A DNA stretch of 64,000 nt from an uncultured Clostridia bacterium (lineage in GTDB: Bacteria; Bacillota; Clostridia; Oscillospirales; QAKW01). Shown piece after piece: positions 9,063-45,432 of the stretch; within the stretch, counting starts at the first letter, position 1; each line of letters opens with the position of its first letter. The position numbers were made by a program, and so were the translations under genes. The stretch is from assembly GCA_937881855.1 (NCBI GenBank), contig CALGEL010000059.1:57032-121031 (forward strand), read 5' to 3'. A model generated the notes under the pieces. It ran no database searches, had not been told where the DNA came from, and saw only the letters and a list, made by a program, of their open reading frames with translations.

Positions 9063-11221
9063 AAGACAAATTGTTTGAAGATTTTATGGTGTCACTAAGT
9101 GATGACAAAAAAATCGACACAGAAAAGATTCGAGCTGCATATCAACGAGCCAAGTCTTGCCATGAAGGCCAGCTCAGAACCTCCGGAGAGGCTTATGTTT
9201 GCCATCCGATCGAAGTGGCAAAATTGGTATATGAGTTTGGGTTGGATACGGATTCGATTTGCGCCGCATTTTTGCACGACACAATCGAAGATACCGAATT
9301 GACCTTTGACGATGTTAAAAAAGAGTTTGGCTTGGATTGCGCCAATATTGTCGATGGCGTGACAAAGTTGGGGCAAATTCAATACACAACAAAAGAAGAG
9401 GCGCAGATTGAATATCTCAGAAAAATGTTTTTGGCGATGGCAAAGGATATTCGAGTAATCCTGATCAAGCTTGCAGACCGCCTTCATAATGTGCGAACTT
9501 TGGGGGCAAGGCCTCGTGAAAAACAGTTGAAGACAGCGCACGAGACCTTGGAAATCTATGCGCCGCTTGCTCATCGATTGGGTATGCAACGTGTTAAGCA
9601 GGAAATGGAAGATATTTCGGTTTCCTATCTTGATCCTGACGGTTGTAAAGTAATTAATGATCGATTGAAAGAATTTGAATCTGTTGGTCATGACTTTGTT
9701 GAAAATACAAAAAGGAATATTTGCGAAAAGTTAAAGGCCCATGACATTCCTTTTGATCTAACCTATCGAGTTAAGCATACATTCAGTATTTATCGAAAGT
9801 TATTTACGCAAAATAAAACTTTCGAAGAATTATACGATATTTATGCCTTTCGATTGATTGTGAACACGGTGAATGATTGCTATTATTTGCTTGGCGTGAT
9901 TCATGATCTTTATAATCCTATACCGGGAAGATTTAAAGATTATATATCCACGCCGAAACCCAATATGTATCAATCTTTGCATACAACAGTTATCGGCAAA
10001 GAGGGTGTTCCTTTTGAGGTGCAGATTCGGACATGGGACATGCATAATACCGCAGAGTATGGTATTGCAGCGCATTGGAAATATAAAAATAACGTTCAAA
10101 ATTCAAAGGCATCTTTGGATGATAAGTTAAAATGGGTAAGAAATATTCTCGAAACGCAGGAAGATGTTTCGGACACCGAGGATTTTATCAAAGCGCTAAA
10201 AATTGACTTATTCGATGATGAAGTCTTTTTGTTTACTCCGCGCGGAGATGTGGTCAATCTGCCTGCCGGTGCAACCGTGATTGACTTTGCTTATGCGATC
10301 CATAGCGCCGTCGGCAACAAAATGGTTGGCGCCAAGGTCAACGGAAAAATTGTCGGGTTGGAATATCAGCCCCAAAATGGTGAGATTATTGAAATTCTGA
10401 CCACCTCATCGGAAAATCACGGGCCTTCAAGGGATTGGCTCAAAATTGTCAAAACCAGTGAGGCAAAGCAAAAAATTCGTCACTGGATTAAAAATGAGCG
10501 TCGAGAAGAAAATGTCGAGACCGGTTGCGATGAATTGGAAAAGGCATTGCGGCGCAGCGGTATTCGCTTGCCCAAAGAAGATCGCGACTCTATAATGCAA
10601 CATACTGCGACTCATCTGCATTTTAATTCTGCTGATGATATGTATGCGGCGATTGGCTATGGTGGTTTGACCGTTGCCAAGGTGGAACGCAGGATACGCG
10701 ATTATTGCGATCAACTCGAAAAAGAAAATAAACCGATCAAGATTGTCAATGTAACCAAACCCAAAGCTCATGCGGGCGGTGTGGAAGTTGAAGGCATTGA
10801 TAATTGCTTGATCAAATTTGCTAAATGTTGCAATCCCTTGCCCGGCGATTATATTTGTGGATTTATAACAAAAGGATATGGGGTTTCGATTCATAAAACA
10901 GATTGTCTGAATGCGCGCCGAGGAATGGAACAAGAGCCCGAACGCTGGTTAAAAGCTACCTGGGATGCCGCAGAAAGCGATAGTTTTTCGACTACTCTGA
11001 TGCTTCTTGTGAATAACGGTATCGGCGTCATGGCAAATCTGACGAGGATTTTGGCAGACCTTAAGGTGAATATTCGGAGTATCGCAACAAGAGAAGAGAG
11101 TAAAGATACAACTATTATAACCATTACAATTGATGTTAAGAGCTTGGATCATCTTAATTTCATTGTTTCGCGGATTCGCAAAGATTCCAATGTTTTGGAT
11201 ATTCAAAGAGCAAATTTATAA
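9053..11221 (+). CDS. relA: bifunctional (p)ppGpp synthetase/hydrolase Rel
   Basis: HD hydrolase motifs (HPIEVA, LHDTIEDT), synthetase motifs (YRSLHTTV-like QSLHTTVIG, AHWKYK), and TGS and ACT regions. The GTG start at 9053 overlaps the recJ stop by 10 nt; ATG at 9086 is an alternative. Confidence 0.93.
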   Translation: MCLEDKLFEDFMVSLSDDKKIDTEKIRAAYQRAKSCHEGQLRTSGEAYVCHPIEVAKLVYEFGLDTDSICAAFLHDTIEDTELTFDDVKKEFGLDCANIVDGVTKLGQIQYTTKEEAQIEYLRKMFLAMAKDIRVILIKLADRLHNVRTLGARPREKQLKTAHETLEIYAPLAHRLGMQRVKQEMEDISVSYLDPDGCKVINDRLKEFESVGHDFVENTKRNICEKLKAHDIPFDLTYRVKHTFSIYRKLFTQNKTFEELYDIYAFRLIVNTVNDCYYLLGVIHDLYNPIPGRFKDYISTPKPNMYQSLHTTVIGKEGVPFEVQIRTWDMHNTAEYGIAAHWKYKNNVQNSKASLDDKLKWVRNILETQEDVSDTEDFIKALKIDLFDDEVFLFTPRGDVVNLPAGATVIDFAYAIHSAVGNKMVGAKVNGKIVGLEYQPQNGEIIEILTTSSENHGPSRDWLKIVKTSEAKQKIRHWIKNERREENVETGCDELEKALRRSGIRLPKEDRDSIMQHTATHLHFNSADDMYAAIGYGGLTVAKVERRIRDYCDQLEKENKPIKIVNVTKPKAHAGGVEVEGIDNCLIKFAKCCNPLPGDYICGFITKGYGVSIHKTDCLNARRGMEQEPERWLKATWDAAESDSFSTTLMLLVNNGIGVMANLTRILADLKVNIRSIATREESKDTTIITITIDVKSLDHLNFIVSRIRKDSNVLDIQRANL

Positions 11222-19635: not shown

Positions 19636-19639
19636 TGTT

Positions 19640-19792
19640 TAGCAAAATAAATGCTTCGCAGACAGCTGGTGTCAATTTATTGACTTAATATCCCGCCGAG
19701 GAGTGCTTTTTATCTTAGGATATCTATGCTCCCAAGCCGGTTTGCGTGTTTGGGAGCATTTTTTTGAAATTCTTACGGAGGTAATTCGATTC
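19640..19792 (+). promoter_or_regulatory. ribosomal protein L10 leader with intrinsic attenuator hairpin
   Basis: A 150-nt structured 5'UTR lies between the promoter and rplJ. The hairpin atgctcccaa/ttgggagcat (19726-19759) is followed by TTTTTTT, consistent with the Firmicute L10(L12)4-responsive leader. Confidence 0.65.
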
Positions 19793-24125: not shown

Positions 24126-24154
24126 TTGTCAATTTATCTTTTATGTGTTATAAT
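24126..24154 (+). promoter_or_regulatory. sigmaA promoter of the DRTGG/kinase/HydS-like operon
   Basis: TTGTCA, a 17-nt spacer, then TATAAT with an extended TGt. Confidence 0.7.
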
Positions 24155-24215
24155 TTTTTATAAGAGCAAAATTTTTAAAGGAAGAGTATATTTTTTACAT
24201 AAGGAGTTAGAAAAA

Positions 24216-24572
24216 ATGAAGTTGTCGAAGGTAAAGGAATTGCTGGATGCGGAGGTTCTCTGTTGCGAAGAAGGGTTGGAGGAAGAAGCAAAGAATGCTT
24301 GTGGGTCCGATATGATGAGTGATGTTCTGGCGTTTGTTAAGGATCAGAGCATTTTGCTGACCGGCCTTGTGAATCCGCAGACTGTGCGAACTGCGCAGAT
24401 GATGGATATTAAGTACATTGTTTTCGTTCGTGGAAAGCGTCCGGATGAATCGGTGATCTCCTTGGCGAAGGAGAATGGAATTATGGTTATGGCGACCAAC
24501 TATCGCTTATATACTGCCTGTGGTTTGCTCTATGCAAACGGATTATATAGTGAAGGAATTGATAAAGTATAA
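24216..24572 (+). CDS. DRTGG domain protein
   Basis: The 118-aa ORF carries GSDMMSDVLAF..SILLTGL. AAGGAG is 9 nt upstream of the ATG at 24216. The ORF-track start 24105 overlaps the promoter. Confidence 0.75.
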   Translation: MKLSKVKELLDAEVLCCEEGLEEEAKNACGSDMMSDVLAFVKDQSILLTGLVNPQTVRTAQMMDIKYIVFVRGKRPDESVISLAKENGIMVMATNYRLYTACGLLYANGLYSEGIDKV

Positions 24573-24991
24573 TGGGACCGATTATTTTAACATATCATGT
24601 GGACGGAGAGGATTTTGCCAACGCCGGCGAAGCTTCGTCTGCTACTAAAAAAACTTTAAAACAGCTTGGTTTTTCTCCTGATGTCATTCGGAAAGTTTCT
24701 ATTGCTATGTATGAAGCCGAAATCAATATGGTGATCCACGCGGAGGGCGGGGAGGCTACTGTTGAGATTTCGCAGGATTTAATTCGTATCGTTTTGGCAG
24801 ACCGCGGTCCGGGTATAAAAGACATCGACCTGGCTATGCGAGAAGGATATTCGACCGCGCCGGAGGAGGTTCGCAATCTCGGATTTGGTGCCGGTATGGG
24901 TTTACCTAATATTAAGAAATATTCCGATGATTTGAAGATTGACTCCATCCCCGGCGTGGGAACAACATTGACCATTCTTATCAATATTTAA
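24572..24991 (+). CDS. RsbW/SpoIIAB-like GHKL ATPase (anti-sigma-type Ser/Thr kinase fold)
   Basis: N-box EAEINMVIHA, G1 DRGPGI, G2 GFGAGMGL. TAATG junction with the upstream gene. Confidence 0.8.
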   Translation: MGPIILTYHVDGEDFANAGEASSATKKTLKQLGFSPDVIRKVSIAMYEAEINMVIHAEGGEATVEISQDLIRIVLADRGPGIKDIDLAMREGYSTAPEEVRNLGFGAGMGLPNIKKYSDDLKIDSIPGVGTTLTILINI

Positions 24992-25003
24992 CGAGGTGAA
25001 AAA

Positions 25004-26260
25004 ATGGATTATTTCCATTCAGTTACATTGGATGCTGATCGTTGTAAGGGATGCATAACTTGCGTTAAGCGTTGCCCGACGGAAGCGATACGCGTTAAAA
25101 ACGGCAAAGCTACAATTATCAAGGAACGTTGCATTGATTGCGGTGAGTGTATACGTGTTTGCCCTCACCATGCGAAAAAAGCGGTTTTTGATCGATTAGA
25201 GCAATTGGACCAATATGAATATAAAGTTGCTTTGCCTGCGCCTGCTTTGTTTGGACAGTTTAATAATCTTGAAAATGTAGATTTTGTATTAAATGGTTTA
25301 TTGGACATTGGTTTTGATGATATTTTTGAAGTGGCGCGTGCCGCAGAATTAGTTTCTGAATGTACGCGAAAACGATTAGAAGAGCCGAATTGTCCGAAAC
25401 CCTTGATTTCTTCTGCATGTCCTGCGATTGTTCGTCTGATTCGTGTTCGCTTTCCGGAATTAATTTCCCAACTTTTGATGGTTCGCGCTCCGGTCGAGAT
25501 TGCTGCGGGAATTGCCCGTCGAGAGGCAATGAAAAAAACAGGTCTTCCTTCCGAAAAAATCGGTGTTTTCTTTATCTCGCCCTGCCCCGCAAAGGTGACA
25601 GCGGTGCGCCAACCGTTAGGTACGAATATCTCCGGGATTGATGGCGTTTTAGCGATTTCCGATGTGTATAAACCGTTACTGAATGCTATGAACAAAATTG
25701 AGCAACCCAAATCACTTTCTGAGTGTGGATTGACCGGAATTTCTTGGGCTTATACCGGCGGTGAAGCGACCTCTTTGCTTCGTAACCGCTATCTTGCGGC
25801 CGACGGAATGGAGAATGTGATTAAGATCCTTGAAGAAATTGAAGACAATAAACTAATGGACCTTGATTTCATCGAATTAGGTGCTTGCAACGCAGGATGT
25901 GTCGGCGGCTGCTTGAATATTGAAAACCCTTATATTGCGCTGACAAGGATTCGTCAAGTGCGAAAATATATGCCTGTTTCAAATAATCGGATAAAAGATT
26001 TTTCCCTTCCGGATGATGCTTATCTTTGCAACAAACAAATTGAATATGATCCCGTGTTGCAATTAGATACAGATTTGGGGCGTGCATTTCAAAAAATGCA
26101 AGAGATTCAAAAACTTGAAAAGCAACTTCCCGGCATCGATTGCGCCGCTTGCGGTGCACCGTCTTGCCATACTTTCGCCGTAGACGTTATCAACGGAAGT
26201 GCGCAAAAATCGGATTGTTTGATTCTTTTGAAAAATCAGATGAAGGATAATGAAGAATAA
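25004..26260 (+). CDS. [FeFe]-hydrogenase-like protein with variant H-cluster motifs (putative sensory HydS-type, no PAS domain)
   Basis: It has 2x CxxCxxCxxxCP ferredoxin motifs. The H-domain motifs are ISSACPA (L1 variant), ISPCPAKV (L2 variant) and ELGACNAGCVGG (L3). A C-terminal CAACGAPSC-x16-C resembles the RnfB-type Fe-S motif. Confidence 0.8.
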   Translation: MDYFHSVTLDADRCKGCITCVKRCPTEAIRVKNGKATIIKERCIDCGECIRVCPHHAKKAVFDRLEQLDQYEYKVALPAPALFGQFNNLENVDFVLNGLLDIGFDDIFEVARAAELVSECTRKRLEEPNCPKPLISSACPAIVRLIRVRFPELISQLLMVRAPVEIAAGIARREAMKKTGLPSEKIGVFFISPCPAKVTAVRQPLGTNISGIDGVLAISDVYKPLLNAMNKIEQPKSLSECGLTGISWAYTGGEATSLLRNRYLAADGMENVIKILEEIEDNKLMDLDFIELGACNAGCVGGCLNIENPYIALTRIRQVRKYMPVSNNRIKDFSLPDDAYLCNKQIEYDPVLQLDTDLGRAFQKMQEIQKLEKQLPGIDCAACGAPSCHTFAVDVINGSAQKSDCLILLKNQMKDNEE

Positions 26261-26592
26261 TGAATGTTCATGAACTTGCTTTGGCATGTGGATTTACATA
26301 TTTTAACGGAGAAAATTTGCAAGCATCTAAGGTTGAAGGTGCATATTGCTGCGATCTGCTTTCTTGGGTAATCGGAAGAGCGGAGGAAACGGATGCATTG
26401 GTAACTGTGATGTCTAATCCCAATGTTGTTGCTGTTGCAGTTATGGCGGAGCTTCCTTGCGTCGTTTTTAGTGAAGGTGTCCGTCCGGATGAGAAGGCCC
26501 TTTTGAAAGCGCGGGAAAATGATGTTATCTTGCTTTCTTCGCAGAAGACAAGTTATGAAACCGCAGTTGCGATCTATAATGCCTTAAAATAA
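26260..26592 (+). CDS. DRTGG domain protein (second copy)
   Basis: The 110-aa ORF carries CCDLLSWVIG..ALVTVMSNPN. TAATG junction. Confidence 0.7.
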   Translation: MNVHELALACGFTYFNGENLQASKVEGAYCCDLLSWVIGRAEETDALVTVMSNPNVVAVAVMAELPCVVFSEGVRPDEKALLKARENDVILLSSQKTSYETAVAIYNALK

Positions 26593-27314
26593 TGAATATA
26601 AAGTATGATTTACATATTCATTCTGCGTTATCTCCTTGCGGTGATGCAGATATGACCCCGAATAATATCGTGAATATGGCGTTGATTTGCGGCTTGGATA
26701 TGATCGCTGTTGCTGATCACAATACTGCGGGAAATGTTGATGCAGTTATAAAGGTTGGCGAAGAAGTCGGCATCGTTGTTGTTCCGGCAATGGAGTTGGA
26801 AACGGCGGAAGAAATTCACGTTTTGTGTTTGTTTTCAAACTTAAACGATGTTTTGCGCTTTGAGAATGAGGTGGTGCGACCGGCACTACCTCCGATTTCC
26901 AACAAAAAAGAGATTTTCGGCGAACAGTTATTGATGGATGAAAAGGATCAAATTGTTGGAGAAGATCCCAGATATTTGCTCAATGCCACGTCCATCTCAT
27001 TAGATGGTTTGCCGGACTTGTTGGAGCAATATAATGGCGTCGCTGTCCCTGCTCATATTGACAAAGAAACCAAAAGTTTGGTTGGTAACTTTGGTATGGT
27101 AGGAGAATATATGGGTTTTAAGGCTTTTGAACTGTCTCGCAGAGTGCAGGAAGGATTTATTGAAGGCACACCGGGGCTTGGATCCAGACCTTATATCTTC
27201 ATTCATGACTCGGATGCCCATTATTTGCAGGATATTGGAGAACACTCCAATGAAAATGTACTAAATCTTCCGGAGAAAACAGCGTCTTCTTTGGTTAATT
27301 ATTTAAAATCTTAA
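26592..27314 (+). CDS. PHP-domain phosphoesterase
   Basis: YDLHIHSALSPCGD, AVADHNT, PAHIDK, HDSDAH. TAATG junction. Confidence 0.8.
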   Translation: MNIKYDLHIHSALSPCGDADMTPNNIVNMALICGLDMIAVADHNTAGNVDAVIKVGEEVGIVVVPAMELETAEEIHVLCLFSNLNDVLRFENEVVRPALPPISNKKEIFGEQLLMDEKDQIVGEDPRYLLNATSISLDGLPDLLEQYNGVAVPAHIDKETKSLVGNFGMVGEYMGFKAFELSRRVQEGFIEGTPGLGSRPYIFIHDSDAHYLQDIGEHSNENVLNLPEKTASSLVNYLKS

Positions 27315-27342: not shown

Positions 27343-27376
27343 TAGAAATTTGATTAATAATGTGATATAATTCATA
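27343..27376 (+). promoter_or_regulatory. promoter of the hydrogenase structural operon with overlapping Rex-like half-palindrome
   Basis: TAGAAA, a 17-nt spacer, then TATAAT (27366-27371) with an extended TGa. TGTGA-N6-TCATA (27361-27376) resembles the Rex operator TGTGA-N6-TCACA with one core mismatch. Confidence 0.45.
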
Positions 27377-27432: not shown

Positions 27433-27927
27433 ATGAGCAACAAGTGTCCCGTTCCCTTTAAGGGAACAAAAGAGCAAGAGCAGATGTTGCAAGCGGTTAT
27501 CGCAAAGCATAAGGATCAAGACGGTCCTTTGATGCCCGTTTTGCAAGAGGCTCAGGAAATCTATGGCTATCTGCCCATCGAAGTGCAAAAAATGATTTCA
27601 GAAGGGTTGGATATTCCTTTGGAGCATATCTATGGTGTTGTGACCTTTTACGCCCAGTTCTCTTTGGCACCCAAGGGAAAATATAAGATCGGTGTCTGCA
27701 TGGGTACCGCTTGCTATGTTAAGGGTTCCGGTGATATTCTGAACAAGATTAAGGAAATCATCGGCATTGAGGTTGGCGAGTGTACTGCTGACGGTAAGTT
27801 CTCTCTTGAAGCTACCCGCTGCATCGGTGCATGCGGTCTGGCCCCGGTTTTGACCATCAATGAAGAAGTTTATGGTCGTTTGGTTGTTGGTGATATTCCT
27901 GAAATTTTGAAAAAATATATGGACTAA
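27433..27927 (+). CDS. hydC: NuoE-like [2Fe-2S] subunit of bifurcating [FeFe] hydrogenase
   Basis: VCMGTACYVKG and RCIGACGLAPV. AAGGAGGA is upstream. Confidence 0.9.
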   Translation: MSNKCPVPFKGTKEQEQMLQAVIAKHKDQDGPLMPVLQEAQEIYGYLPIEVQKMISEGLDIPLEHIYGVVTFYAQFSLAPKGKYKIGVCMGTACYVKGSGDILNKIKEIIGIEVGECTADGKFSLEATRCIGACGLAPVLTINEEVYGRLVVGDIPEILKKYMD

Positions 27928-27933
27928 GCATCC

Positions 27934-28485
27934 ATGAAGGAATTATCACTTAATATTCTTGATATTACGCATAATTCGATCAAAGCCAAGGCGGAACAAA
28001 TTGAAATCTCGATTTTTGAACGGCAATCTGCGAATCTGATCGAAATAATGATTCGGGATGACGGTTGCGGGATGGATGAAGAATTTCTTCGCGGTGTAAC
28101 CGATCCGTTTGTTACAACGAGAACAACGCGAAAAGTCGGATTGGGAATCCCATTATTTAAGCAAAGCGCAGAAGATGCAGGCGGATCCTTTTCCATTTCG
28201 TCTAAAATAGGCGAGGGGACAGAGATTTACGCATCCTTTCGGATCGATCACCTGGACCGTATGCCGATTGGTGATATGAGCAGTACAATGGTTAGTTTGA
28301 TCCAAGCCAATGACCATATTCGTTTTATATATACTCACAAAACGGATGTTGGTGAATTTGTTTTGAATACGGATGACCTTCACGCTCAACTGGGTGATGT
28401 TCCGCTTTCCGAACCGATGGTTTTAAATTGGATTGAAGAATATATCAATGAGAATTTGGAAGACATTCAAGGAGGAAAAATATAA
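27934..28485 (+). CDS. stand-alone GHKL (histidine-kinase-like) ATPase embedded in the hydrogenase operon
   Basis: N-box LDITHNSIKA, G1 DDGCGM, G2 KVGLGIPL. No HisKA, sensor or TM segment. Confidence 0.8.
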   Translation: MKELSLNILDITHNSIKAKAEQIEISIFERQSANLIEIMIRDDGCGMDEEFLRGVTDPFVTTRTTRKVGLGIPLFKQSAEDAGGSFSISSKIGEGTEIYASFRIDHLDRMPIGDMSSTMVSLIQANDHIRFIYTHKTDVGEFVLNTDDLHAQLGDVPLSEPMVLNWIEEYINENLEDIQGGKI

Positions 28486-28860
28486 ATGAAATCTTTAGCT
28501 GAATTGCAAGCGATTAAAGAAAGAATGCAGAACAATGTTATGTTGCGTTCCAACGATGGGGAAGAAACCATTCGCGTCGTTGTCGGTATGGCAACCTGCG
28601 GCATTGCTGCCGGCGCTCGACCGGTATTAAATGCCTTTTTGAAAGAGATCGAAGATCGTCGTCTGAGCAATGTGGTATGCACGCAGACCGGCTGTATCGG
28701 CATTTGCCGCTACGAGCCTGTTGTTGAGATCACTACTCCCGACGGTGTGAAGACCACCTATGTTAAGATGGATGAAGACAAGGTGGCTAAGGTGGTAACC
28801 GAGCATATCGTCAACAATAAGATTGTTCAGGAATTTACCATCGCTGCATACGAAGAATAA
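28486..28860 (+). CDS. thioredoxin-like [2Fe-2S] ferredoxin subunit (HndB-like)
   Basis: VVGMATCGIAAGA and TGCIGICRYEP. It starts immediately after the upstream stop. Confidence 0.85.
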   Translation: MKSLAELQAIKERMQNNVMLRSNDGEETIRVVVGMATCGIAAGARPVLNAFLKEIEDRRLSNVVCTQTGCIGICRYEPVVEITTPDGVKTTYVKMDEDKVAKVVTEHIVNNKIVQEFTIAAYEE

Positions 28861-28874
28861 GGGGGATTTTGAAA

Positions 28875-30668
28875 ATGATTAGAAACCATATTTTGATCTG
28901 CGGCGGTACCGGATGTACTTCTTCCGGCGCTTTGAACGTGATGGATGCCCTGAATACAGAGTTGGAAAAGTACAACCTGCAAGATGAAGTCAAAGTCGTT
29001 ATGACCGGTTGCTTCGGTCTTTGCGCTTTGGGTCCCATTATGATTGTCTATCCCGAAGGCTCCTTTTATAGCCGCGTTGATGCAGAAGCAATTCCTGAAA
29101 TCGTTTCTGAACATATCGTTAAAGGTCGTATTGTAAAGAAATATCTTTACAGTGAAGTTGCAGAAATGGAAGAAAAGGGTGTTCACGCTTCTTTGAACGA
29201 TACCAAGTTCTATAAGAAACAAAAGCGTGTTGCTCTGCGCAACTGCGGTGTCATCAACCCTGAGATGATCGATGAATATATTGCTTATGACGGTTATCAA
29301 GCGTTGGGTAAGGTTCTTACCGAAATGACTCCTGCTGAGGTTATTCAAACCATCAAAGATTCCGGTCTGCGCGGTCGTGGCGGCGGCGGATTCCCCACCG
29401 GCTTGAAATGGGATCTTGCTTCCCGCACTGTTGCAGATGTGAAGTATGTTTGTTGTAATGCAGACGAAGGTGACCCGGGTGCATTTATGGATCGCTCCAT
29501 TTTGGAAGGTGATCCCCACGCGGTCATTGAAGCGATGGCAATTGCTGCTTATGCAGTGGGTGCTTGCAAGGGCTTTGTCTACATCCGTGCGGAGTATCCT
29601 ATCGCGGTTAATCGTTTGCAGATTGCAATCAATCAGGCTCGCGAGTATGGTTTGCTTGGTAACAACATCTTTGGCACCGACTTTAATTTCGATATGGAAA
29701 TTCGTTTGGGCGCCGGTGCGTTCGTTTGCGGTGAAGAAACCGCTTTGATGACCTCTATCGAAGGTAATCGCGGTGAGCCTCGTCCTCGTCCGCCGTTCCC
29801 CTCTGAAAAGGGTATTTTCCAGATCCCCACAATGAACTGCAACGTTGAAACCTATGCCAACATCGCTCAGATCATTCTGAACGGTGCTGAGTGGTTTGCT
29901 TCGATGGGTACCGAAAAATCCAAGGGCACCAAAGTTTTCGCTTTGGGCGGTAAGATCACAAACACCGGCTTGGTTGAGATCCCCATGGGTACTACTCTGC
30001 GTGAAGTTATTGAGGATATCGGTGGTGGTATTCCCAACGGTAAGAAGTTTAAGGCGGCTCAGACCGGCGGTCCTTCCGGCGGTTGTATTCCCGCTTCCTT
30101 GATCGATACACCGATTGACTATGATAACTTGGTTGCTATCGGTTCTATGATGGGTTCCGGTGGTTTGATTGTTATGGATGAAGACAACTGTATGGTTGAT
30201 ATTGCCAAGTTCTTCTTGGAGTTTACTGTTGATGAATCCTGTGGTAAATGTACTCCTTGCCGTATCGGTACCAAGAGAATGCTCGAATATCTCGAGAAGA
30301 TCACCTCCGGCAAGGCAACCATGAAGGATATTGATGATTTGGAACAGCTTTGCTATTACATTAAAGCAAACGCTCTTTGCGGCTTGGGTCAAACCGCTCC
30401 CAACCCTGTTCTTTCCACCTTGCGTTATTTCCGCGATGAATATGAGGCACACGTTATTGAGAAGCGTTGCCCCGCCGGTGTATGTAAGGATTTGATGCGT
30501 TATGAGATTACCGATGCATGTAAGGGTTGTACTCTTTGCGCACGTCAATGCCCTGTCAATGCGATTGAAGGTGCTGTAAAGAACCTGCATGTCATTGATC
30601 AAGATAAGTGCATTAAGTGCGGCGTTTGCATCAGCAAGTGTAAGTTTGGCGCTATCATCAAGAAGTAA
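28875..30668 (+). CDS. hydB: NuoF-like NAD(P)H/FMN subunit of bifurcating [FeFe] hydrogenase
   Basis: GRGGGGFPTGLKW (FMN), CNADEGDPGAF, ESCGKCTPCR, and a C-terminal 2x[4Fe-4S]. The ATG at 28875 is 8 nt after GGGGGA; the ORF-track TTG is at 28869. Confidence 0.93.
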   Translation: MIRNHILICGGTGCTSSGALNVMDALNTELEKYNLQDEVKVVMTGCFGLCALGPIMIVYPEGSFYSRVDAEAIPEIVSEHIVKGRIVKKYLYSEVAEMEEKGVHASLNDTKFYKKQKRVALRNCGVINPEMIDEYIAYDGYQALGKVLTEMTPAEVIQTIKDSGLRGRGGGGFPTGLKWDLASRTVADVKYVCCNADEGDPGAFMDRSILEGDPHAVIEAMAIAAYAVGACKGFVYIRAEYPIAVNRLQIAINQAREYGLLGNNIFGTDFNFDMEIRLGAGAFVCGEETALMTSIEGNRGEPRPRPPFPSEKGIFQIPTMNCNVETYANIAQIILNGAEWFASMGTEKSKGTKVFALGGKITNTGLVEIPMGTTLREVIEDIGGGIPNGKKFKAAQTGGPSGGCIPASLIDTPIDYDNLVAIGSMMGSGGLIVMDEDNCMVDIAKFFLEFTVDESCGKCTPCRIGTKRMLEYLEKITSGKATMKDIDDLEQLCYYIKANALCGLGQTAPNPVLSTLRYFRDEYEAHVIEKRCPAGVCKDLMRYEITDACKGCTLCARQCPVNAIEGAVKNLHVIDQDKCIKCGVCISKCKFGAIIKK

Positions 30669-30686: not shown

Positions 30687-32438
30687 ATGATTAACTTAAA
30701 AATCAATGGAACTCCAATCAGCGTACCTGCCGGTACAACGATTTTGGAAGCTGCCAGAATGAATAATATTGATATTCCCACTCTGTGCTTTTTGAAAGAA
30801 ATCAATGCGATCGGTGCTTGCCGTATCTGCGTTGTTGAGAACAGAGTAAACGGTATGGGTCGCTTGGTGGCGGCTTGCGTATTCCCTGTGGCTGAGGGAA
30901 TGGATGTGTACACCCATAGCCCCATGGTTCACAAAGCAAGAAAACAAACTTTGGAATTGATTCTTTCCGACCACGATAAGAAGTGTCTTTCCTGTGTCCG
31001 CTCCGGTACCTGCGAATTGCAACGCCTTTGCAACGAATATGGCGTGGATAAAGAGGATGCATTCAACGGCGATGTCAACACCTTCGCCATTGATGATTCT
31101 GCTATTCATATGGTTCGCGATAATAATAAATGTATCCTTTGTCGTCGTTGCGTTGCTGTCTGCGAAAAGTGGCAGGGTGTTTCGGTGATCGGTGCAAATG
31201 AGCGCGGCTTTGCCACTCACATCGGTTCCGCTTTCGACGATGGCTTGGGTCTGACCTCTTGCGTATCCTGCGGTCAGTGTATCGTTGCATGTCCCACAGG
31301 CGCTTTGGCCGAAAAGGATGATACCGATAAGATTTGGGAAGCCCTGGCAGATCCTACCAAGCATGTTGTTGTTCAGGTTGCTCCTTCCATTCGTGTAACC
31401 TTGGGTGAAGCATTTGATATGCCTGTCGGCACCAATGTGGAAGGCAAGATGGTAACTGCTCTGAAGAAACTGGGCTTTGACAAGGTATTTGATACCGATG
31501 TTACCGCTGACCTTACCATTATGGAAGAGTCCAACGAATTGATCGAGCGTGTTCAGAACGGCGGAGTTCTGCCGATGATCACTTCTTGTTCTCCCGGTTG
31601 GATTAAGTATTGCGAACATTATTTCCCTGAAATGATTCCCAATCTTTCTTCCTGCAAATCTCCTCAGCAGATGTTTGGCGCTGTCATTAAGACCTACTAT
31701 GCTGAAAAGAATAATATCGACCCTAAGGATATCGTTAGCGTATCTGTTATGCCCTGTACTGCCAAGAAATTTGAAGTCGGTCGTGACGATCAAAGCGCCG
31801 CAGGTATTCCCGATGTTGATATTTCCATCACAACCCGTGAATTGGCCAGAATGATCAAGAGAGCAGGTATCTTCTTTACTAAATTGGAAGACAGCGAATT
31901 TGATCATCCTCTGGGTGTTGGTTCCGGCGCCGGTTTGATCTTCGGTGCTACCGGCGGTGTTATGGAAGCCGCATTGCGTACCGCAGTTGAGAAGTTGACC
32001 GGTGAAGAACTCGGCAAATTGGAGTTTGCTGATGTCCGCGGTACCGCAGGTATTAAGGAAGCCGCTTATAAGGTTGGCGATCTTGAAATTAAGGTTGCGG
32101 TCTGCTCCGGTTTGGCAAATGCTAAGGAACTGCTCAAGAAGGTTCAGTCCGGCGAAGCGGATTATACCTTTATTGAGATTATGGGTTGTCCCGGTGGCTG
32201 TGTCAACGGTGGTGGTCAGCCTTATCAACCCGCCTCGGTTCGCAATTATGAGGATCTTCGCGCTCTGCGTGCAAAAGCTCTTTATGATACCGATGCTGCT
32301 ATGACTCTTAGAAAGTCTCACGAGAACCCTGTTGTTAAGGAGCTGTATGATTCTTACTTTGGTCAGCCCGGCAGTCATAAGGCGCACGAGGTTCTGCATA
32401 CTTCCTATGTGAAGAGAAATCGTTTTGGTGATCAATAA
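30687..32438 (+). CDS. hydA: [FeFe] hydrogenase catalytic subunit, M3 architecture (group A3-type)
   Basis: An N-terminal 2Fe-2S and 4Fe-4S modules. H-domain motifs: TSCSPGW (L1, see findings), VMPCTAKKFE (L2), EIMGCPGGCVNGGGQP (L3). It aligns gaplessly to the CpI C-terminal half as I recall it. Confidence 0.93.
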   Translation: MINLKINGTPISVPAGTTILEAARMNNIDIPTLCFLKEINAIGACRICVVENRVNGMGRLVAACVFPVAEGMDVYTHSPMVHKARKQTLELILSDHDKKCLSCVRSGTCELQRLCNEYGVDKEDAFNGDVNTFAIDDSAIHMVRDNNKCILCRRCVAVCEKWQGVSVIGANERGFATHIGSAFDDGLGLTSCVSCGQCIVACPTGALAEKDDTDKIWEALADPTKHVVVQVAPSIRVTLGEAFDMPVGTNVEGKMVTALKKLGFDKVFDTDVTADLTIMEESNELIERVQNGGVLPMITSCSPGWIKYCEHYFPEMIPNLSSCKSPQQMFGAVIKTYYAEKNNIDPKDIVSVSVMPCTAKKFEVGRDDQSAAGIPDVDISITTRELARMIKRAGIFFTKLEDSEFDHPLGVGSGAGLIFGATGGVMEAALRTAVEKLTGEELGKLEFADVRGTAGIKEAAYKVGDLEIKVAVCSGLANAKELLKKVQSGEADYTFIEIMGCPGGCVNGGGQPYQPASVRNYEDLRALRAKALYDTDAAMTLRKSHENPVVKELYDSYFGQPGSHKAHEVLHTSYVKRNRFGDQ

Positions 32439-32446
32439 TTTTTTAA

Positions 32447-32478
32447 AATAAGGAGTCCATTCGGACTCCTTATTTTTT
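32447..32478 (+). terminator. rho-independent terminator
   Basis: The stem aataaggagtcc pairs with ggactccttatt and is followed by TTTTT. Confidence 0.85.
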
Positions 32479-32562: not shown

Positions 32563-34107
32563 ATGGGTAAAGGAAAAAGAGTGCGCGAAAGCCGCGCGGC
32601 GGAAAAAGAAGCTTTGAAGCTGGCTGCTATTCAAAAAGCAAAAAAAGATAAGGTTAAGAAAATTGCAATTATTGTTTGCTCTCTTGCCATTGTTGTCGCA
32701 TTGCTTGCAGGTACATTGACACATTCAATTACCTCTGCGGTTAAAAGCAGCGGAAATGCCATGAGAACAACATCGGTTCTTGAAACTGATAATTTCAAAA
32801 TTGATGCGGCGATGATGTCGTATTATTTCAATTATAATTATAATTCCACTGTTGGAAACAATCAAGAGACATATAAATCGTTAGGACTCGATATATCCAA
32901 GTCTTTGAAAAAACAGGCATGTTCTTTCTTGGAAGATGGCGGTACATGGTTTGATTATTTCCTTGATTCCGCTTTATCTACTGCGAAAAGTGATATTTAT
33001 TTAGCTGAGAAAGCCAAGAAAGATGGCATTGAATTGTTAGAGACCGATAAGGATAGCATTCAGTCTGTGATCGATGAATATTATGATTATGCCGAAGAGA
33101 ATAACATTAAAAAAGACAATGTATTTTCTTTGATTTTTGGGCAGGGTGTTAAGGAAGGAGATGTTCGTAATTGTCTCGAATTATCAACGCTCGCTTCGAA
33201 TTTTATTCGAAAATGGCAAGATTCCTTGGAATACTCGGACGATGACTATGATAAATTCTATGAGGAAAACATCGACGATTATAAAATGGTAGATTATCTT
33301 AGCTATACCATTACCGCCAGCGACACAGAGGATGAAGACACTTTTGCCGCTGCCAAAGAAAAAGCGGAAGATTTAGCGGGCGTTGCCGGAGAACAAGCCT
33401 TTAAGGATTTTGTTGAGGCGGAATATCGCAAAAATAACGGAATTACCGATAAGTTTTCTAAAGAAGACCAAGACAAGGGTGCAAAAGAAGCACTGGATAA
33501 ATTGCCCACAACGGGAGCAACCAAAGCAATTATTGGTGACACCGATATTTCAAAGTGGTTCTTTGAGAATGCCGAAAAAGGCGATACCTATATTGACGAT
33601 GATGAGAGCGGTTCATATACCGTTTATTATTGCACCGCCGAGCCATATCGTAATGAGGATATTTCCAGAACAATTCGTCAGATCATTCTTGCGGAATCCA
33701 GCTATGGCGCAGATGAAGTCGAAAAGCAGGCAATTGCATTGCAGGCTGAAATGAAAGAAAAGGGTCTTACCGAAGAAACCTTCGAAACTTATGCCGCCAA
33801 ATATAGCGATGATACCAATACTTCCCAAATTGGCGGTCTTTGCGAGAATTACAGCGAAAACCATTTTGTAACCGATGTCTCCGATTGGGCATTTAATGAG
33901 TCGCGGAAAGTCGGCGATTTCGATGCTGTGAAATATGATGGCGGATATGCATTGTGTTATTATGTCGGCGAAGGACTTCCCGGCTGGAAGGCAGACTGCA
34001 AAGCAGATATGATTAATGAAGATTATGAAAAAGCCTACGAAGAATGGGAAAAAGATATAAAGCTTACCATTAACGAGGTGGGATACAACAAGATTTCTCT
34101 TCTGTAA
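32563..34107 (+). CDS. membrane-anchored parvulin-type peptidyl-prolyl isomerase (PrsA/SurA-like)
   Basis: A basic cytoplasmic tail plus a TM (IAIIVCSLAIVVALLAG). The C-terminal segment RQIIL...SDDTNTSQIGGL...DFDAVKYDGGYALCYYV follows the PpiC pattern. Confidence 0.5.
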   Translation: MGKGKRVRESRAAEKEALKLAAIQKAKKDKVKKIAIIVCSLAIVVALLAGTLTHSITSAVKSSGNAMRTTSVLETDNFKIDAAMMSYYFNYNYNSTVGNNQETYKSLGLDISKSLKKQACSFLEDGGTWFDYFLDSALSTAKSDIYLAEKAKKDGIELLETDKDSIQSVIDEYYDYAEENNIKKDNVFSLIFGQGVKEGDVRNCLELSTLASNFIRKWQDSLEYSDDDYDKFYEENIDDYKMVDYLSYTITASDTEDEDTFAAAKEKAEDLAGVAGEQAFKDFVEAEYRKNNGITDKFSKEDQDKGAKEALDKLPTTGATKAIIGDTDISKWFFENAEKGDTYIDDDESGSYTVYYCTAEPYRNEDISRTIRQIILAESSYGADEVEKQAIALQAEMKEKGLTEETFETYAAKYSDDTNTSQIGGLCENYSENHFVTDVSDWAFNESRKVGDFDAVKYDGGYALCYYVGEGLPGWKADCKADMINEDYEKAYEEWEKDIKLTINEVGYNKISLL

Positions 34108-35871: not shown

Positions 35872-35900
35872 ATTTTATCATATTTTTATATATAAATCAA
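35872..35900 (-). promoter_or_regulatory. sigmaA promoter of GT2-PAP2, overlapping the ATPase stop codon
   Basis: The minus strand reads TTGATT, a 17-nt spacer, then TAAAAT with an extended TGa. Confidence 0.55.
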
Positions 35901-36961
35901 GTTCTTGAAAAGAGTTTGGTCATCAAGTTGTCTTTTAAATGTTCGGTCGCTTTGAAATCAGTCCCAATCGCATATTCCTGCTCAATTTGCATATGGATAG
36001 TTCTGGCTTTTTTGAGTTTATCCGTTGCAAGATTTAAAATTTCTTTTTGAAGTCTTTTAATAAAAGTGAATTTATTTTTGTTTGAGTTTAGGATGGATCT
36101 ATCAAGCATATTTTGAAGATTAATTTTTTTGATTACTTGTTCTTCGTCTATGGGAAAATCAAAATATCCGTCTTTTGATATAATTGAAAGGTCGGCTTGC
36201 GGGATGATGATATGGTGCAATGTTTCTTTGCCGAGCAGCGGGTGATAGGAATTGATATGGTCAATCCCGCGTTTTGAAAGTTGCCGCTCAATATAGTTTA
36301 AAAATGGAGCCGCGATCATCCAGCGGTCTTCAAGGAGAATGATGTTTTTTCCAAGCATATGAATAGTTTCTGATAATGTATGCATCCCATCGGGTGAGAT
36401 CGCAGATAAAAATCGTTTTAAAATTTTGGCGCGACGGTTTTGGTTTTCCCATAACGCATTTTGCATCATTATTTTGTTTCCGATTTTTTGCATTTTTTCA
36501 AAATCAAGCTGTTTATATAGCGGAGCAAAGCATCCGGCGTGAATGTCTGCTGCACTTTTGAGAAGATGATAGCACGCTTGATATAAATTACTTTTTTGAT
36601 CGCAAAGTTCGATAATTTTTTTATCATTTAACTTATTGGGATCCCAACCTTCGCCCAAATCAATGATGTTCCCGCCGACTCCCGGGTATTTAGGCTCAAA
36701 ACTATGGGGGTTCGTGGCATCAATAATGACGGAATTTTGCTTGGGTAATATAACGCCATCCAAACTATTCGGATCTCCGGAACAGTAGATAAGTTCGGCG
36801 TCGGATACTTGATTGGCGATTGTAGTCATAAGTGTACTTTTGCCGCATCCGGGGCCACCCTTTATGTAGTAGATATGGCTTCTTTTTTCGTTTAAAATTG
36901 TATCAAAAAAGGAGATAAAACCTTCGCCGCTATTGGCGGCGCAATATGTCTTGAATTTCAT
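35897..36961 (-). CDS. P-loop ATPase of unknown function (resembles the PRK06851-type family I recall from spore formers)
   Basis: Walker A KGGPGCGKST, CSGDPNSLDGVILP, IDATNPHSFEPKYPG, LGEGWD. GGAGGTGA is upstream. Confidence 0.65.
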   Translation of the reverse strand: MKFKTYCAANSGEGFISFFDTILNEKRSHIYYIKGGPGCGKSTLMTTIANQVSDAELIYCSGDPNSLDGVILPKQNSVIIDATNPHSFEPKYPGVGGNIIDLGEGWDPNKLNDKKIIELCDQKSNLYQACYHLLKSAADIHAGCFAPLYKQLDFEKMQKIGNKIMMQNALWENQNRRAKILKRFLSAISPDGMHTLSETIHMLGKNIILLEDRWMIAAPFLNYIERQLSKRGIDHINSYHPLLGKETLHHIIIPQADLSIISKDGYFDFPIDEEQVIKKINLQNMLDRSILNSNKNKFTFIKRLQKEILNLATDKLKKARTIHMQIEQEYAIGTDFKATEHLKDNLMTKLFSRT

Positions 36962-37064: not shown

Positions 37065-37832
37065 ATGGTCAATAAAGTTGTAATTAGCGGTGTAGACACA
37101 TCGAAATTGCCGATCTTGTCAAACAATGAAAAAAACGAACTTTTAAAAAGAATTAAAGAAGGCGACCGAAAAGCAAAGGATCAGTTTGTGGAAGGAAATC
37201 TTCGTTTGGTTCTTTCCATTGTTCAGCGTTTTGCGGGTCGTGGAGAATGTATGGATGATTTATTTCAGGTCGGTTGTATTGGATTAATAAAAAGCATTGA
37301 TAATTTTGACCTTAGTCTGGGATTACGATTCAGTACCTATGGCGTTCCAATGATCTTAGGGGAGATCCGAAGATATTTGCGTGATAATAATATGGTTCGT
37401 GTGTCCCGTGCAACACGCGACCTTGCCTATCGGGCGTTGACAGCGAAGGAACAATTATCAAATGAAAAGAACCGCGAACCAACGATTGCGGAGATTGCCG
37501 AACGATTGGAGACAAGAAAAGAAGACGTTGTTATGGCATTAGAGGCTATTGTCGACCCAATTTCTCTTTTTGAACCGGTCTATTCGGATGGAAACGATGC
37601 GTTATATGTAATGGATCAAGTGAGCGACGGACGCGGCGGTGAAGATTGGCTGGATGAATTGCTGATAAAAGATGCGATTAACAATCTACCGGCGAGAGAG
37701 CGAAATATCATCGAACTTCGTTTTCTGGAGGGAAAGACCCAAATGGAGGTGGCAGAAGAAGTGGGGATTTCGCAAGCTCAGGTATCTCGGTTGGAAAAAG
37801 GAGCGATGGAACGGATAAAGGGGCAGCTGTAA
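37065..37832 (+). CDS. sigG: sporulation sigma factor SigG
   Basis: VVISGVDTSKLPILSN, GNLRLVLSIVQRF, DDLFQVGCIGLIKSIDNFD, FSTYGVPMILGEIRRYLRDNN. These are near-identical to B. subtilis SigG blocks. Confidence 0.88.
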   Translation: MVNKVVISGVDTSKLPILSNNEKNELLKRIKEGDRKAKDQFVEGNLRLVLSIVQRFAGRGECMDDLFQVGCIGLIKSIDNFDLSLGLRFSTYGVPMILGEIRRYLRDNNMVRVSRATRDLAYRALTAKEQLSNEKNREPTIAEIAERLETRKEDVVMALEAIVDPISLFEPVYSDGNDALYVMDQVSDGRGGEDWLDELLIKDAINNLPARERNIIELRFLEGKTQMEVAEEVGISQAQVSRLEKGAMERIKGQL

Positions 37833-39978: not shown

Positions 39979-40818
39979 ATGTTCGCAGACTTTTGGACTC
40001 ACATTCAAAATGTGTTTATTACCATTCAATTTAAAGATTGCATAGATATCCTGGTTGTTGCTTATTTGATTTACAGCGTTCTGCGCTTTATCAAACAAAC
40101 AAGGGCCGGGCATTTATTGCGTGGTCTGGCGTTTTTGCTGGTGCTGATTTTGTTGGCACGGGTTTTGAAGCTTAGCGCTGTGGGCTATTTGATGAACAAT
40201 GTTCTTCAGTTGAGCTTTATCACCATCATCATTGTATTTCAACCGGAGCTTCGTTCGTTGCTTGAAAAATTGGGAAGAATCAATTTCTCCAATGTATTGC
40301 CGTTCTCCAAGACCGGCAATACCGAACGTGACCGAATTGAACGCGGCATTGAACATGTCTGTGAATGTTGCGAAGATCTTTCCAACCGCCGCATCGGTGC
40401 TCTGATGGTTTTTGAAAATACGACGAAATTAGGCGATATTGCTGCGACGGGAACCTATCTTAATTGCAATCTTTCAGCGCAAATGCTGGTTACAATCTTT
40501 TTCCCCAAAACGCCGTTGCACGATGGCGCTGTTATGATCGAAGATTTTCGCATTGTCTCTGCCGGATGTTTGCTACCTTTGAGTCAACGATTAGAGATCA
40601 GTAAAGCATTGGGAACGCGGCATCGGGCGGCAGTTGGTTTGAGCGAGATTTCAGATGCTGTTATCGTTGTTGTTTCTGAAGAGACCGGTAAGATTTCATA
40701 CGCTCAAAATGGCGAAATTCACTTGGGTATCTCTGTCGATGAGCTGAGAAATGTGTTGGTGAATAATTTCCTCTCCGAGAAGAAGGGGCGTGCGAAAACG
40801 GAGGTGGATAAAAAATGA
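39979..40818 (+). CDS. cdaA: diadenylate cyclase
   Basis: Three N-terminal TM helices. DAC domain strings: TPLHDGAVMI, LGTRHRAAVGLSE, VVVVSEETGKIS. Confidence 0.93.
   Translation: MFADFWTHIQNVFITIQFKDCIDILVVAYLIYSVLRFIKQTRAGHLLRGLAFLLVLILLARVLKLSAVGYLMNNVLQLSFITIIIVFQPELRSLLEKLGRINFSNVLPFSKTGNTERDRIERGIEHVCECCEDLSNRRIGALMVFENTTKLGDIAATGTYLNCNLSAQMLVTIFFPKTPLHDGAVMIEDFRIVSAGCLLPLSQRLEISKALGTRHRAAVGLSEISDAVIVVVSEETGKISYAQNGEIHLGISVDELRNVLVNNFLSEKKGRAKTEVDKK

Positions 40819-45356: not shown

Positions 45357-45432
<76 letters not shown>

Follow-up and report, generated by a model that had tools for sequence, protein, structure and literature searches.

What does a putative sensory hydrogenase control when no output domain is visible in its own gene cluster? 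This question is raised by a five-gene module at positions 24216 to 27314 of the window, the whole stretch of 64,000 nucleotides (nt) analysed here, which comes from an uncultured spore-forming gut Clostridia bacterium with the Oscillospirales as its closest relatives. The five genes almost certainly make up a conserved operon that accompanies group D hydrogenases, and they stand in front of an NADH-dependent or bifurcating hydrogenase operon with the order HydC-(ATPase)-HydD-HydB-HydA. Our explanation, to which we give a probability of about one half, is that the module forms an H2 or redox sensor complex which acts on the HydABC enzyme.

A preliminary description of the window had reported five open reading frames (ORFs), and these are present on the forward strand at 24216-24572, 24572-24991, 25004-26260, 26260-26592 and 26592-27314, encoding proteins of 118, 139, 418, 110 and 240 amino acids (aa). 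The overlapping TAATG stop/start sites at 24572, 26260 and 26592 were found in the sequence as claimed, and Pfam agrees with the domains that had been assigned. The first product is a stand-alone DRTGG protein (DRTGG1; DRTGG 1.8e-8, 34.6 bits), the second a GHKL kinase of the SpoIIAB/RsbW (anti-sigma) type (HATPase_c_2 6.5e-11), the third an [FeFe]-hydrogenase-like protein, the fourth another DRTGG protein (DRTGG2; DRTGG 8e-6, 26.1 bits; Hpr_kinase_N 6e-5) and the fifth a predicted metal-dependent phosphoesterase of the PHP family (PHP 1.6e-6). Both DRTGG proteins pass the Pfam PF07085 cut-off of 25.2 bits. In a Pfam search at E<=0.01 the ten proteins of the module and the adjacent operon show no helix-turn-helix, sigma, STAS, receiver or PAS domain, which confirms the absence reported earlier.

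The identity of the module follows from the 418-aa protein (25004-26260), a putative sensory [FeFe] hydrogenase called HydS-D below. Pfam finds in it two Fer4 domains, Fe_hyd_lg_C (2e-28) and a C-terminal FeS domain (PF04060, 5e-11). Its two N-terminal CxxCxxCxxxC motifs (C14/17/20/24 and C43/46/49/53) and its C-terminal four-cysteine motif (C380-x2-C383-x4-C388-x16-C405) are invariant, no PAS domain is matched by Pfam, and the chain stops 13 residues past C405. The H-cluster motifs were read from an alignment to a solved group A HydA. All four ligand cysteines are retained (C139, C194, C295 and C299), while the proton-relay cysteine (C299 in CpI) is replaced by Ala138 (motif SSA138C139PA against TSCCP), the methionine of the MPC motif (M353) by Ser192 in S192-P-C194-P-A-K, which is invariant in 13 sequences, and the methionine of the third motif (M497) by Gly293 (ELGAC295NAGC299). 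The loss of the relay cysteine and the exchange of M353 bear out the altered H-cluster motifs that the preliminary description had noticed.

These are the traits that have been described for M2e or group D hydrogenases: no PAS domain, a Cx2Cx4Cx16C motif, loss of C299, a well conserved exchange of M353 for Ser or Thr, and a poorly conserved M497 (PMC8163306). In TamHydS of Thermoanaerobacter mathranii, the characterised enzyme of group D, the residues R30, K35, K58, D378, D393 and D403 are more than 75% conserved among 70 group D sequences, and S249, E252, D265 and E289 have been proposed to form an alternative proton path (Biochemistry 2026). The matching residues in HydS-D, compared by position offsets and not by alignment to the TamHydS sequence, are R30, K35, K58, D379, D394 and D404, and T251, E254, D267 and E291; all ten are invariant or nearly so in our alignment, save position 251, which is Thr or Ser. 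A related locus (L082) contains both a PAS-less and a PAS-bearing HydS, to which HydS-D has identities of 49% and 27%, respectively; its identity to the HydA of the adjacent operon is 22%. On account of the architecture, the H-cluster substitutions, the TamHydS-type residues, the identities in L082 and the gene position, we assign the 418-aa protein to group D (M2e) with hardly any reservation, the identities in L082 serving as a proxy for a reference phylogeny. Group C is marked by a PAS domain after the four-cysteine motif; Pfam matches one in the group C proteins of L082 and L107 but none in HydS-D. The module had been presented as a PAS-less variant; HydS-D is indeed a PAS-less relative of the sensory HydS proteins, but it is not new and belongs to the already named group D. 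The PDB holds no structure of a group C or group D hydrogenase.

Clusters of this type have been catalogued before, in hydrogen producers from the gut and among the thermophiles. The 'D M2e' monomeric sensory hydrogenases Cthe_0335, TTE0887, Athe_1292, Csac_1857, Cphy_3798 and Teth39_1463 (Carere et al. 2012, PMC3561251, Table 6) have no PAS/PAC domains, and their genes are found close to those of protein kinases and upstream of an A1-type bifurcating hydrogenase (footnote to the same table; PMC8163306). The number of the M2e gene is five below that of the first of three A1 TR(M3) hyd genes (Cthe_0335/0340-42, TTE0887/0892-94, Athe_1292/1297-99; PMC3561251), and the same spacing is found in the window, where HydS, DRTGG2, PHP, HydC and the ATPase are followed by HydD-HydB-HydA. 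We are therefore nearly certain that the window cluster is the same cluster as that of Cthe_0335, TTE0887, Athe_1292 and the TamHydS locus. It shares with the group D clusters (TamHydS, Cthe_0335, TTE0887, Athe_1292, Csac_1857, Cphy_3798) the architecture, the active-site substitutions, the charged residues, the gene position and an adjacent small kinase; it comes from a mesophilic gut Clostridia lineage and not from a thermophile, and nothing essential differs. At the M497 position, reported as poorly conserved (PMC8163306), the window protein has Gly and TamHydS has Leu. The window adds another copy of a known cluster, and the copy itself is not unusual.

A further difference concerns the 'AraC family regulator' that the TamHydS paper places beside its hydrogenase gene, since no such gene is found in this cluster or in 160 related loci. 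The Joint Genome Institute (JGI) label of the DRTGG1 homologues P0288, P0329 and P0352 is 'predicted transcriptional regulator', though they consist of a DRTGG domain alone, and labels of this kind may account for the reported regulator. The TamHydS supplement gave no operon or 'AraC' information. Literature searches on DRTGG or PHP neighbours of hydrogenases, and on a 'histidine kinase-like ATPase' with a bifurcating hydrogenase, found nothing beyond the TamHydS paper.

How constant is the arrangement in nature? The related loci (L001-L160) comprise 80 genome loci, obtained through HydS-D as those of its 80 closest relatives (mostly Oscillospirales metagenome-assembled genomes, plus Harryflintia, Acutalibacter and Enterocloster), whose ORFs were searched with the ten window proteins, and 80 metagenome loci fetched through the 183-aa ATPase of the hyd operon, of which 32 have enough flank. 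The families themselves are large, with more than 8000 database clusters for HydS-D at E<1e-20, and 7152 for DRTGG1 and 5566 for PHP at E<=1e-5. DRTGG1, kinase and HydS-D follow each other in that order in 80/80 genome loci. DRTGG2 is present in 79/80 (the contig of L054 ends first), and PHP comes after it in 76/80, the exceptions being L042 and L054, where the contig ends, L051 and L067. Because this order recurs in about 76 of the 80 genome loci and in 22 of the 32 ATPase-anchored loci, the five-gene arrangement is far from chance.

The junctions between the genes reveal a substructure. DRTGG1 and kinase genes overlap in 49 of 79 loci and are at most 20 nt apart in 72, and DRTGG2 and PHP genes overlap in 40 of 76 and are at most 20 nt apart in 65. 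Overlap is not typical of the kinase/HydS junction (median gap 36 nt) and is seen in 17 of 79 loci at the HydS/DRTGG2 junction. Judged by these frequencies, the module is built of two pairs around the sensor, with DRTGG1 coupled in translation to the kinase and DRTGG2 to PHP. The two pairs evolve at different rates, the median identity to the window proteins being 58% for DRTGG1, 61% for the kinase, 54% for HydS-D, 38% for DRTGG2 and 43% for PHP.

The hydrogenase operon is a frequent companion of the module. The genes hydC-ATPase-fd-hydB-hydA lie directly downstream of it in 29 of the 80 genome loci and divergently upstream in 22, so that hydABC adjoins the module in 51 of 68 determinable loci (about 75%; 12 loci are undeterminable). 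Co-conservation with hydrogenase operons, on which the preliminary description had staked its proposal, is thus present. Seen from the 183-aa ATPase, the full module is adjacent in 22 of the 32 loci, PHP only in 4, a DRTGG2-like gene only in 2, and none of the module genes in 3. PHP alone directly upstream of hydC-ATPase-fd-hydB-hydA was found in nine loci, five of them with a short flank (L119, L120, L124, L128 at 8618-9352, L142, L147, L149, L156 and L157), and the DRTGG2-like gene alone in L145 and L151 (8839-9171, minus strand). HydS, kinase and DRTGG1 were not found within the fetched flank of these reduced loci.

In L082 (6072-17603), L089 and L107, one hydABC set is flanked by a group D module and by a group C HydS, and on the group C side a PAS-containing HydS (611 aa) is followed by a SpoIIE/PP2C phosphatase. 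One hydrogenase operon can thus be served by both putative sensor types, which are not simple substitutes for each other. The group C hydrogenases (M2f: TmHydS, R. albus HydS, T. saccharolyticum HfsB) resemble HydS-D in their N-terminal clusters, modified H-domain and four-cysteine motif, and also in their linkage to bifurcating hydrogenases and to kinase and phosphatase genes; a regulatory role has genetic evidence in the case of HfsB. The PAS domain and the following PP2C/SpoIIE phosphatase are particular to group C, whereas the DRTGG proteins and PHP are particular to the module in the window.

The 183-aa ATPase (27934-28485, forward strand; HATPase_c 3e-14) deserves attention of its own. 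Its N-terminal 100 residues are a catalytic and ATP-binding (CA) domain of the histidine kinase type, with histidine kinase catalytic domains as best PDB matches, and its C-terminal 80 aa have no Pfam match. In all but two arrangements the gene has hydC as one neighbour and the ferredoxin gene as the other. L004 and L103 have the five-gene module inserted after hydC, just ahead of the ATPase gene; in L088 the ATPase gene directly follows PHP, and the hydC-fd-hydB-hydA set is without it, and the same six-gene string, with the ATPase gene directly after PHP, is found in L150. Because the gene is associated with the module and PHP no less than with the hydrogenase, the 183-aa ATPase is probably a sixth component of the regulatory system.

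The statement that the module has no visible output domain can be extended to its surroundings, and it holds over the 160 related loci, across which no linked DNA-binding output gene is co-conserved. When all other ORFs of the 80 genome loci were clustered, no co-conserved neighbour was found except serC/serA, in 18 related genomes.

We suggest the following mechanism for the proposed H2 or redox sensor complex. HydS-D would bind H2 at an H-cluster without the normal proton relay and change its conformation, and this state would be read or reset by two protein pairs made in stoichiometric amounts with it, one of DRTGG1 and the SpoIIAB-like kinase, the other of DRTGG2 and PHP. The signal itself might be phosphorylation, partner sequestration or a nucleotide. 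The 183-aa ATPase, whose gene is part of the hyd operon, would act as the sixth component, the output would most likely be post-translational control of the HydABC enzyme, and hydABC transcription would be handled separately from the module, by Rex in many relatives. That the module has some sensory or regulatory role is likely. TamHydS binds an H-cluster and combines low turnover with a high H2 affinity and an H2-dependent change of secondary structure (PMC8163306; Biochemistry 2026), its C-terminal cluster does not respond to H2, and its partners are said to need identifying (Biochemistry, April 2026). The NADH-dependent hydrogenase activity of C. tengcongensis is cited as responding to the partial pressure of H2 (via PMC3561251). 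Since no DNA-binding or sigma gene is linked to the module, and since the module lies beside or inside hydABC, control of the enzyme after translation appears to be the most likely output, although we hold this part tentatively and at less than even confidence. In its logic the system would resemble HoxBC-HoxJ-HoxA of Ralstonia eutropha, in which a slow, high-affinity [NiFe] hydrogenase reports H2 to a kinase. The proteins are unrelated, however, and neither a PAS histidine kinase like HoxJ nor a DNA-binding response regulator like HoxA is found in the module or the hyd operon.

Several points weigh against this explanation. The links of the module proteins to each other and to HydABC are inferred from sequence comparison. 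In 17 of the 68 determinable loci there is no hydABC within 4-10 kb of the module, which requires a target that can be acted on in trans, and the PHP-only and DRTGG2-only loci show parts of the set working without HydS. The kinase is of the anti-sigma type, for which an unlinked sigma factor is possible, and deletion of the group C gene hfsB raises adhE transcripts, which is a transcriptional effect. The predicted fold of PHP would suggest nucleotides or nucleic acids as substrates rather than phosphoproteins. And finally, the mirror-tree correlations of the ATPase with the module proteins (0.39-0.55) are compatible with its role as a sixth component but no larger than shared phylogeny could produce, and the partial correlations (0.2-0.55) are modest and single out no partner.

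The preliminary description had favoured a relay in which, depending on the state of HydS-D, the kinase transfers phosphate to Ser/Thr residues of DRTGG1, DRTGG2 or both, PHP opposes it, and the phosphorylated DRTGG protein is the signal. The kinase (24572-24991) would be equipped for this, with intact and invariant ATP-binding boxes (N box E48..N52, G1 box D77xGxG81, G2 box G104FGAGMG110), and translational coupling ties either DRTGG gene to the gene of one enzyme. DRTGG2 (26260-26592) is a paralogue of DRTGG1 (24216-24572), as the comparison of their profiles indicates (hhalign probability 98.8%, E 4.7e-17), and Ser35 is invariant in both, within the motif D-[ML]-[ML]-S35. Near-invariant in the 81 DRTGG1 sequences are A28-CGSDMMSDVLA-39, LLTGL, RTA and FVRGK. 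In the AlphaFold2 (AF2) model of DRTGG1, built like that of PHP with an alignment of database homologues, the overall confidence is high (predicted local distance difference test, pLDDT, 88), and the segment around this serine, GSDMMS35DVLA, is the sole low-confidence stretch (residues 31-40, mean pLDDT 66) and so is probably mobile. An invariant serine in such a place is compatible with a phospho-acceptor role and proves nothing. Group C systems, moreover, pair HydS-PAS with a PP2C phosphatase (PMC5707799).

Phosphorylation of a DRTGG protein is nonetheless without known precedent. The best fold match of the DRTGG1 model is the DRTGG protein AF1212 (template modelling score, TM, 0.79), followed by the DRTGG domain of a CBS-pyrophosphatase (CBS-PPase; TM 0.73) and then by the N-terminal domain of HPr kinase (HPrK-N). 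The model thus has a plain DRTGG/HPrK-N fold and not a STAS fold, and we rejected the idea that DRTGG is a structural analogue of STAS. A literature search on DRTGG together with hydrogenase gave nothing relevant, and one on Thermoanaerobacter phosphoproteome data nothing usable.

The main difficulty for this relay lies in its supposed phosphatase. PHP (26592-27314) has a complete and invariant set of metal ligands (H8, H10, D42/H43, E68, H76, H155, D208 and H210) and a confident AF2 model (pLDDT 94.3). Its profile matched EndoQ, BAD_1165, RNase AM, Cv1693 and PolC PHP domains in the PDB, with no CpsB or YwqE at E<=1. With the model as query, Foldseek gave EndoQ (5e-9, TM 0.68), RNase AM (2e-8) and Cv1693 among its matches, YwqE at rank 35 (E 0.044, TM 0.39) and histidinol phosphatases weaker still. 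By profile and predicted fold, the protein resembles the EndoQ, RNase AM and pAp-phosphatase enzymes and not the protein phosphatases; a homologue with 78% identity is named 'PHP family Zn ribbon phosphoesterase' by JGI. EndoQ, RNase AM (TrpH/YciV) and the pAp phosphatase Cv1693 are the best profile and fold matches and share the full metal-ligand set, but the identity is 15-18%, the hydrogenase-operon context is unlike theirs, and the Zn-ribbon and C-terminal domains of EndoQ are missing from the 240-aa protein. We know of no PHP Ser/Thr phosphatase. A Ser/Thr phosphatase opposing the kinase is therefore not supported, and the model of kinase versus PHP phosphatase is weakened both by these nucleotidase- or nuclease-like affinities and by the nine loci with PHP upstream of hydC-ATPase-hydB-hydA, which contain no kinase, HydS or DRTGG gene in the fetched flank. 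Together with the DRTGG2-only loci, which also have no kinase, these are the strongest points against the phosphorylation relay, and we regard it as unlikely.

Another possibility is that the kinase is an anti-sigma factor or another anti-regulator, whose grip on a sigma factor or transcription factor from an unlinked gene is loosened by DRTGG antagonists under the control of HydS-D, giving a transcriptional output. The best NCBIfam match of the kinase is SpoIIAB, followed by RsbW, yet it stays far below both equivalog cut-offs (55 bits against 135 for SpoIIAB, 31 against 145 for RsbW). In common with SpoIIAB-SpoIIAA-SpoIIE and RsbW-RsbV-RsbU, the module has a serine kinase of the HATPase_c_2 type, overlapping genes, alpha/beta proteins of about 110 aa and a phosphoesterase; in contrast to them it has no STAS antagonist, PP2C phosphatase or sigma factor, the DRTGG fold is different, and a STAS gene is missing from the hyd operon as well. 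The effect of the hfsB deletion on adhE transcripts would fit such an output. A sigma factor gene is also at hand in the window, with sigG 4.6 kb downstream of hydA, adjoining a MecA-like adaptor gene (SigF/G family, 37065-37832; NCBIfam NF006071, 402 bits against a cut-off of 372). In only 1 of the 160 other loci, however, is there a sigma gene within 10 kb of the module, so that the proximity of sigG is a coincidence and we rejected it as the missing output. Co-conservation with a transcription factor was not found among the related loci either, and we doubt that partner switching with an unlinked target is the answer.

A bolder reading is a previously undescribed partner switch without STAS and sigma, in which the DRTGG proteins, the kinase, PHP and the 183-aa ATPase turn the H2-bound state of HydS-D into direct on/off control of the electron-bifurcating HydABC. 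This would make DRTGG a new class of phospho-acceptor or antagonist, and the substrate of PHP would be something else than an ordinary phosphoprotein; we consider it distinctly improbable.

One could also ask whether the module is a sensor at all. HydS-D and its neighbours might instead assist HydABC in catalysis, in its assembly or in its repair, for example by H2-dependent reductive reactivation or by the chaperone action of GHKL ATPases, a family that includes chaperones. TamHydS does turn over H2 reversibly, if slowly, some hydABC loci have PHP and the 183-aa ATPase but no HydS, and a 2024 survey continues to call group D 'functionally undefined'. On the other hand, the proton relay is gone and turnover is slow, the H2 affinity of TamHydS is high and H2 induces a change of its secondary structure, a SpoIIAB-type kinase is a signalling protein, and 17 modules lie away from hydABC. 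A role outside sensing is therefore very unlikely in our view.

Equally, PHP might hydrolyse a nucleotide or oligonucleotide signal, with the DRTGG proteins as nucleotide-binding regulatory subunits. The relatives of PHP act on pAp, on sites with bound nucleoside monophosphate and on 5'-phosphorylated RNA or DNA, DRTGG domains occur in the nucleotide-regulated part of CBS-PPases, and the invariant loops of DRTGG1, rich in Arg, Lys, Ser, Thr and Gly (R58, T59, R72, K74 and T49-G50), would suit a phosphate ligand. But the nucleotides of CBS-PPases bind the CBS pair and not the DRTGG domain, a cyclase or synthetase gene is missing from the module, and there is little chance that nucleotide signalling is its function. 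An anti-phage defence role of the GHKL and PHP proteins was rejected, because none of the five module proteins matches a PADLOC model and the match of the 183-aa ATPase is marginal (MzaB, E 1e-4 over 50 residues).

Much current work on group D hydrogenases treats them as possible H2 sensors, and the comparative data presented here narrow the candidate partners: two coupled pairs, an ATPase within hydABC, and a DNA-binding output that is missing in 160 loci. They also advise caution, in that the PHP neighbour should not be assumed to be a protein phosphatase. If HydABC is controlled post-translationally, the module would be a lever on the flux to H2 versus ethanol and acetate, which would be relevant to gut fermenters and also to biofuel strains in which this cluster is present, such as C. 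thermocellum, Thermoanaerobacter and Caldicellulosiruptor.

Transcription signals were considered for the module and the hyd operon. AAGGAG at 24201-24206 precedes the ATG of DRTGG1 at 24216, and this start gives the length of 118 aa that is common to nearly all DRTGG1 homologues. A putative promoter-like site of the sigma-70 type lies 62 nt upstream of the ATG (24126-24154, forward strand; TTGTCA, 17 nt, TATAAT, with an extended -10 TG; 11/12 matches). The preliminary description had called it the module's own strong promoter. The consensus match is real, but its strength is plausible only, since such sites are not enriched as a class (18 found against 20.1 expected in this AT-rich stretch). 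A search for a terminator between the PHP gene and hydC found none, and a weaker promoter-like site precedes hydC (27343-27371, forward strand; TAGAAA, 17 nt, TATAAT, TG). A strong intrinsic terminator-like hairpin with a 14-bp stem and a following T run would close the hyd operon after hydA (32445-32476, forward strand). No Rfam families were found in or near the module.

In 14 of 51 loci the region upstream of hydC has a box of the Rex type (TTGTTAA-N4-TTAACAA) with at least 12 of 14 matches, where about 0.1 would be expected, and in L025, L014, L027, L057 and L059 the palindromes are near-perfect (13-14/14). Because of this enrichment, hydABC transcription seems to be handled by Rex in many relatives, separately from the module. 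Upstream of DRTGG1, boxes of the same quality were found in 5 of 81 cases, against 0.5 expected, and those of the window reach 9-11 of 14 matches, a poor one of 10/14 at 27358-27375 overlapping the -10 element of the site before hydC. Rex control of the module itself was rejected, as the boxes are marginal upstream of DRTGG1 and weak in the window.

The remaining genes of the hyd operon, all on the forward strand, are of known types. HydC (27433-27927) is a NuoE-like [2Fe-2S] subunit (2Fe-2S_thioredx 7e-51; NuoE/HoxE models), and the 124-aa HydD-like protein (28486-28860) is a thioredoxin-like [2Fe-2S] ferredoxin (NCBIfam 2Fe-2S ferredoxin 9e-12; weak 2Fe-2S_thioredx). HydB (28869-30668) is a NuoF-like flavin/NADH subunit (Complex1_51K 2e-44, NADH_4Fe-4S 3e-36; NuoF models). 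HydA (30687-32438), the catalytic [FeFe] hydrogenase subunit with M3 architecture (Fe_hyd_lg_C 3e-101), is recognised by NCBIfam as 'NADH-dependent [FeFe] hydrogenase, group A6' with 897 bits against a cut-off of 765. Its first H-cluster motif is TSCSPGW (31581-31601, residues 299-305) instead of TSCCPxW, as in 75 of the 76 HydA orthologues of the related loci. The serine presumably stands at the position of the cluster ligand C300 in CpI numbering, and all orthologues with TSCSPGW have an extra cysteine, at least 90% conserved, six residues past the Trp (GWiKyCE). A variant of this type is mentioned for Melainabacteria hydrogenases (PMC3787301).

Downstream of the operon, an acidic protein of 514 aa with an N-terminal membrane anchor (32563-34107) has no match in Pfam or NCBIfam, and a P-loop protein of 354 aa (35897-36961, minus strand) matches 'hypothetical protein' PRK06851 models only. 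The flanks on both sides (1-24005 and 38771-63100) belong to a part of a spore former's chromosome that is given to housekeeping genes. They contain folD, a gene for a SipL-domain coat protein, recJ, relA/spoT, ligA, gatB, dus, serA/serC, nrdR and ispH-rpsA, and also nusG-rplK-rplA-rplJ with an L10 leader (19638-19772), cdaA-cdaR (39979-42080), a tRNA-Thr gene (45357-45432) and LicD/CTP-transferase genes for wall polymers.

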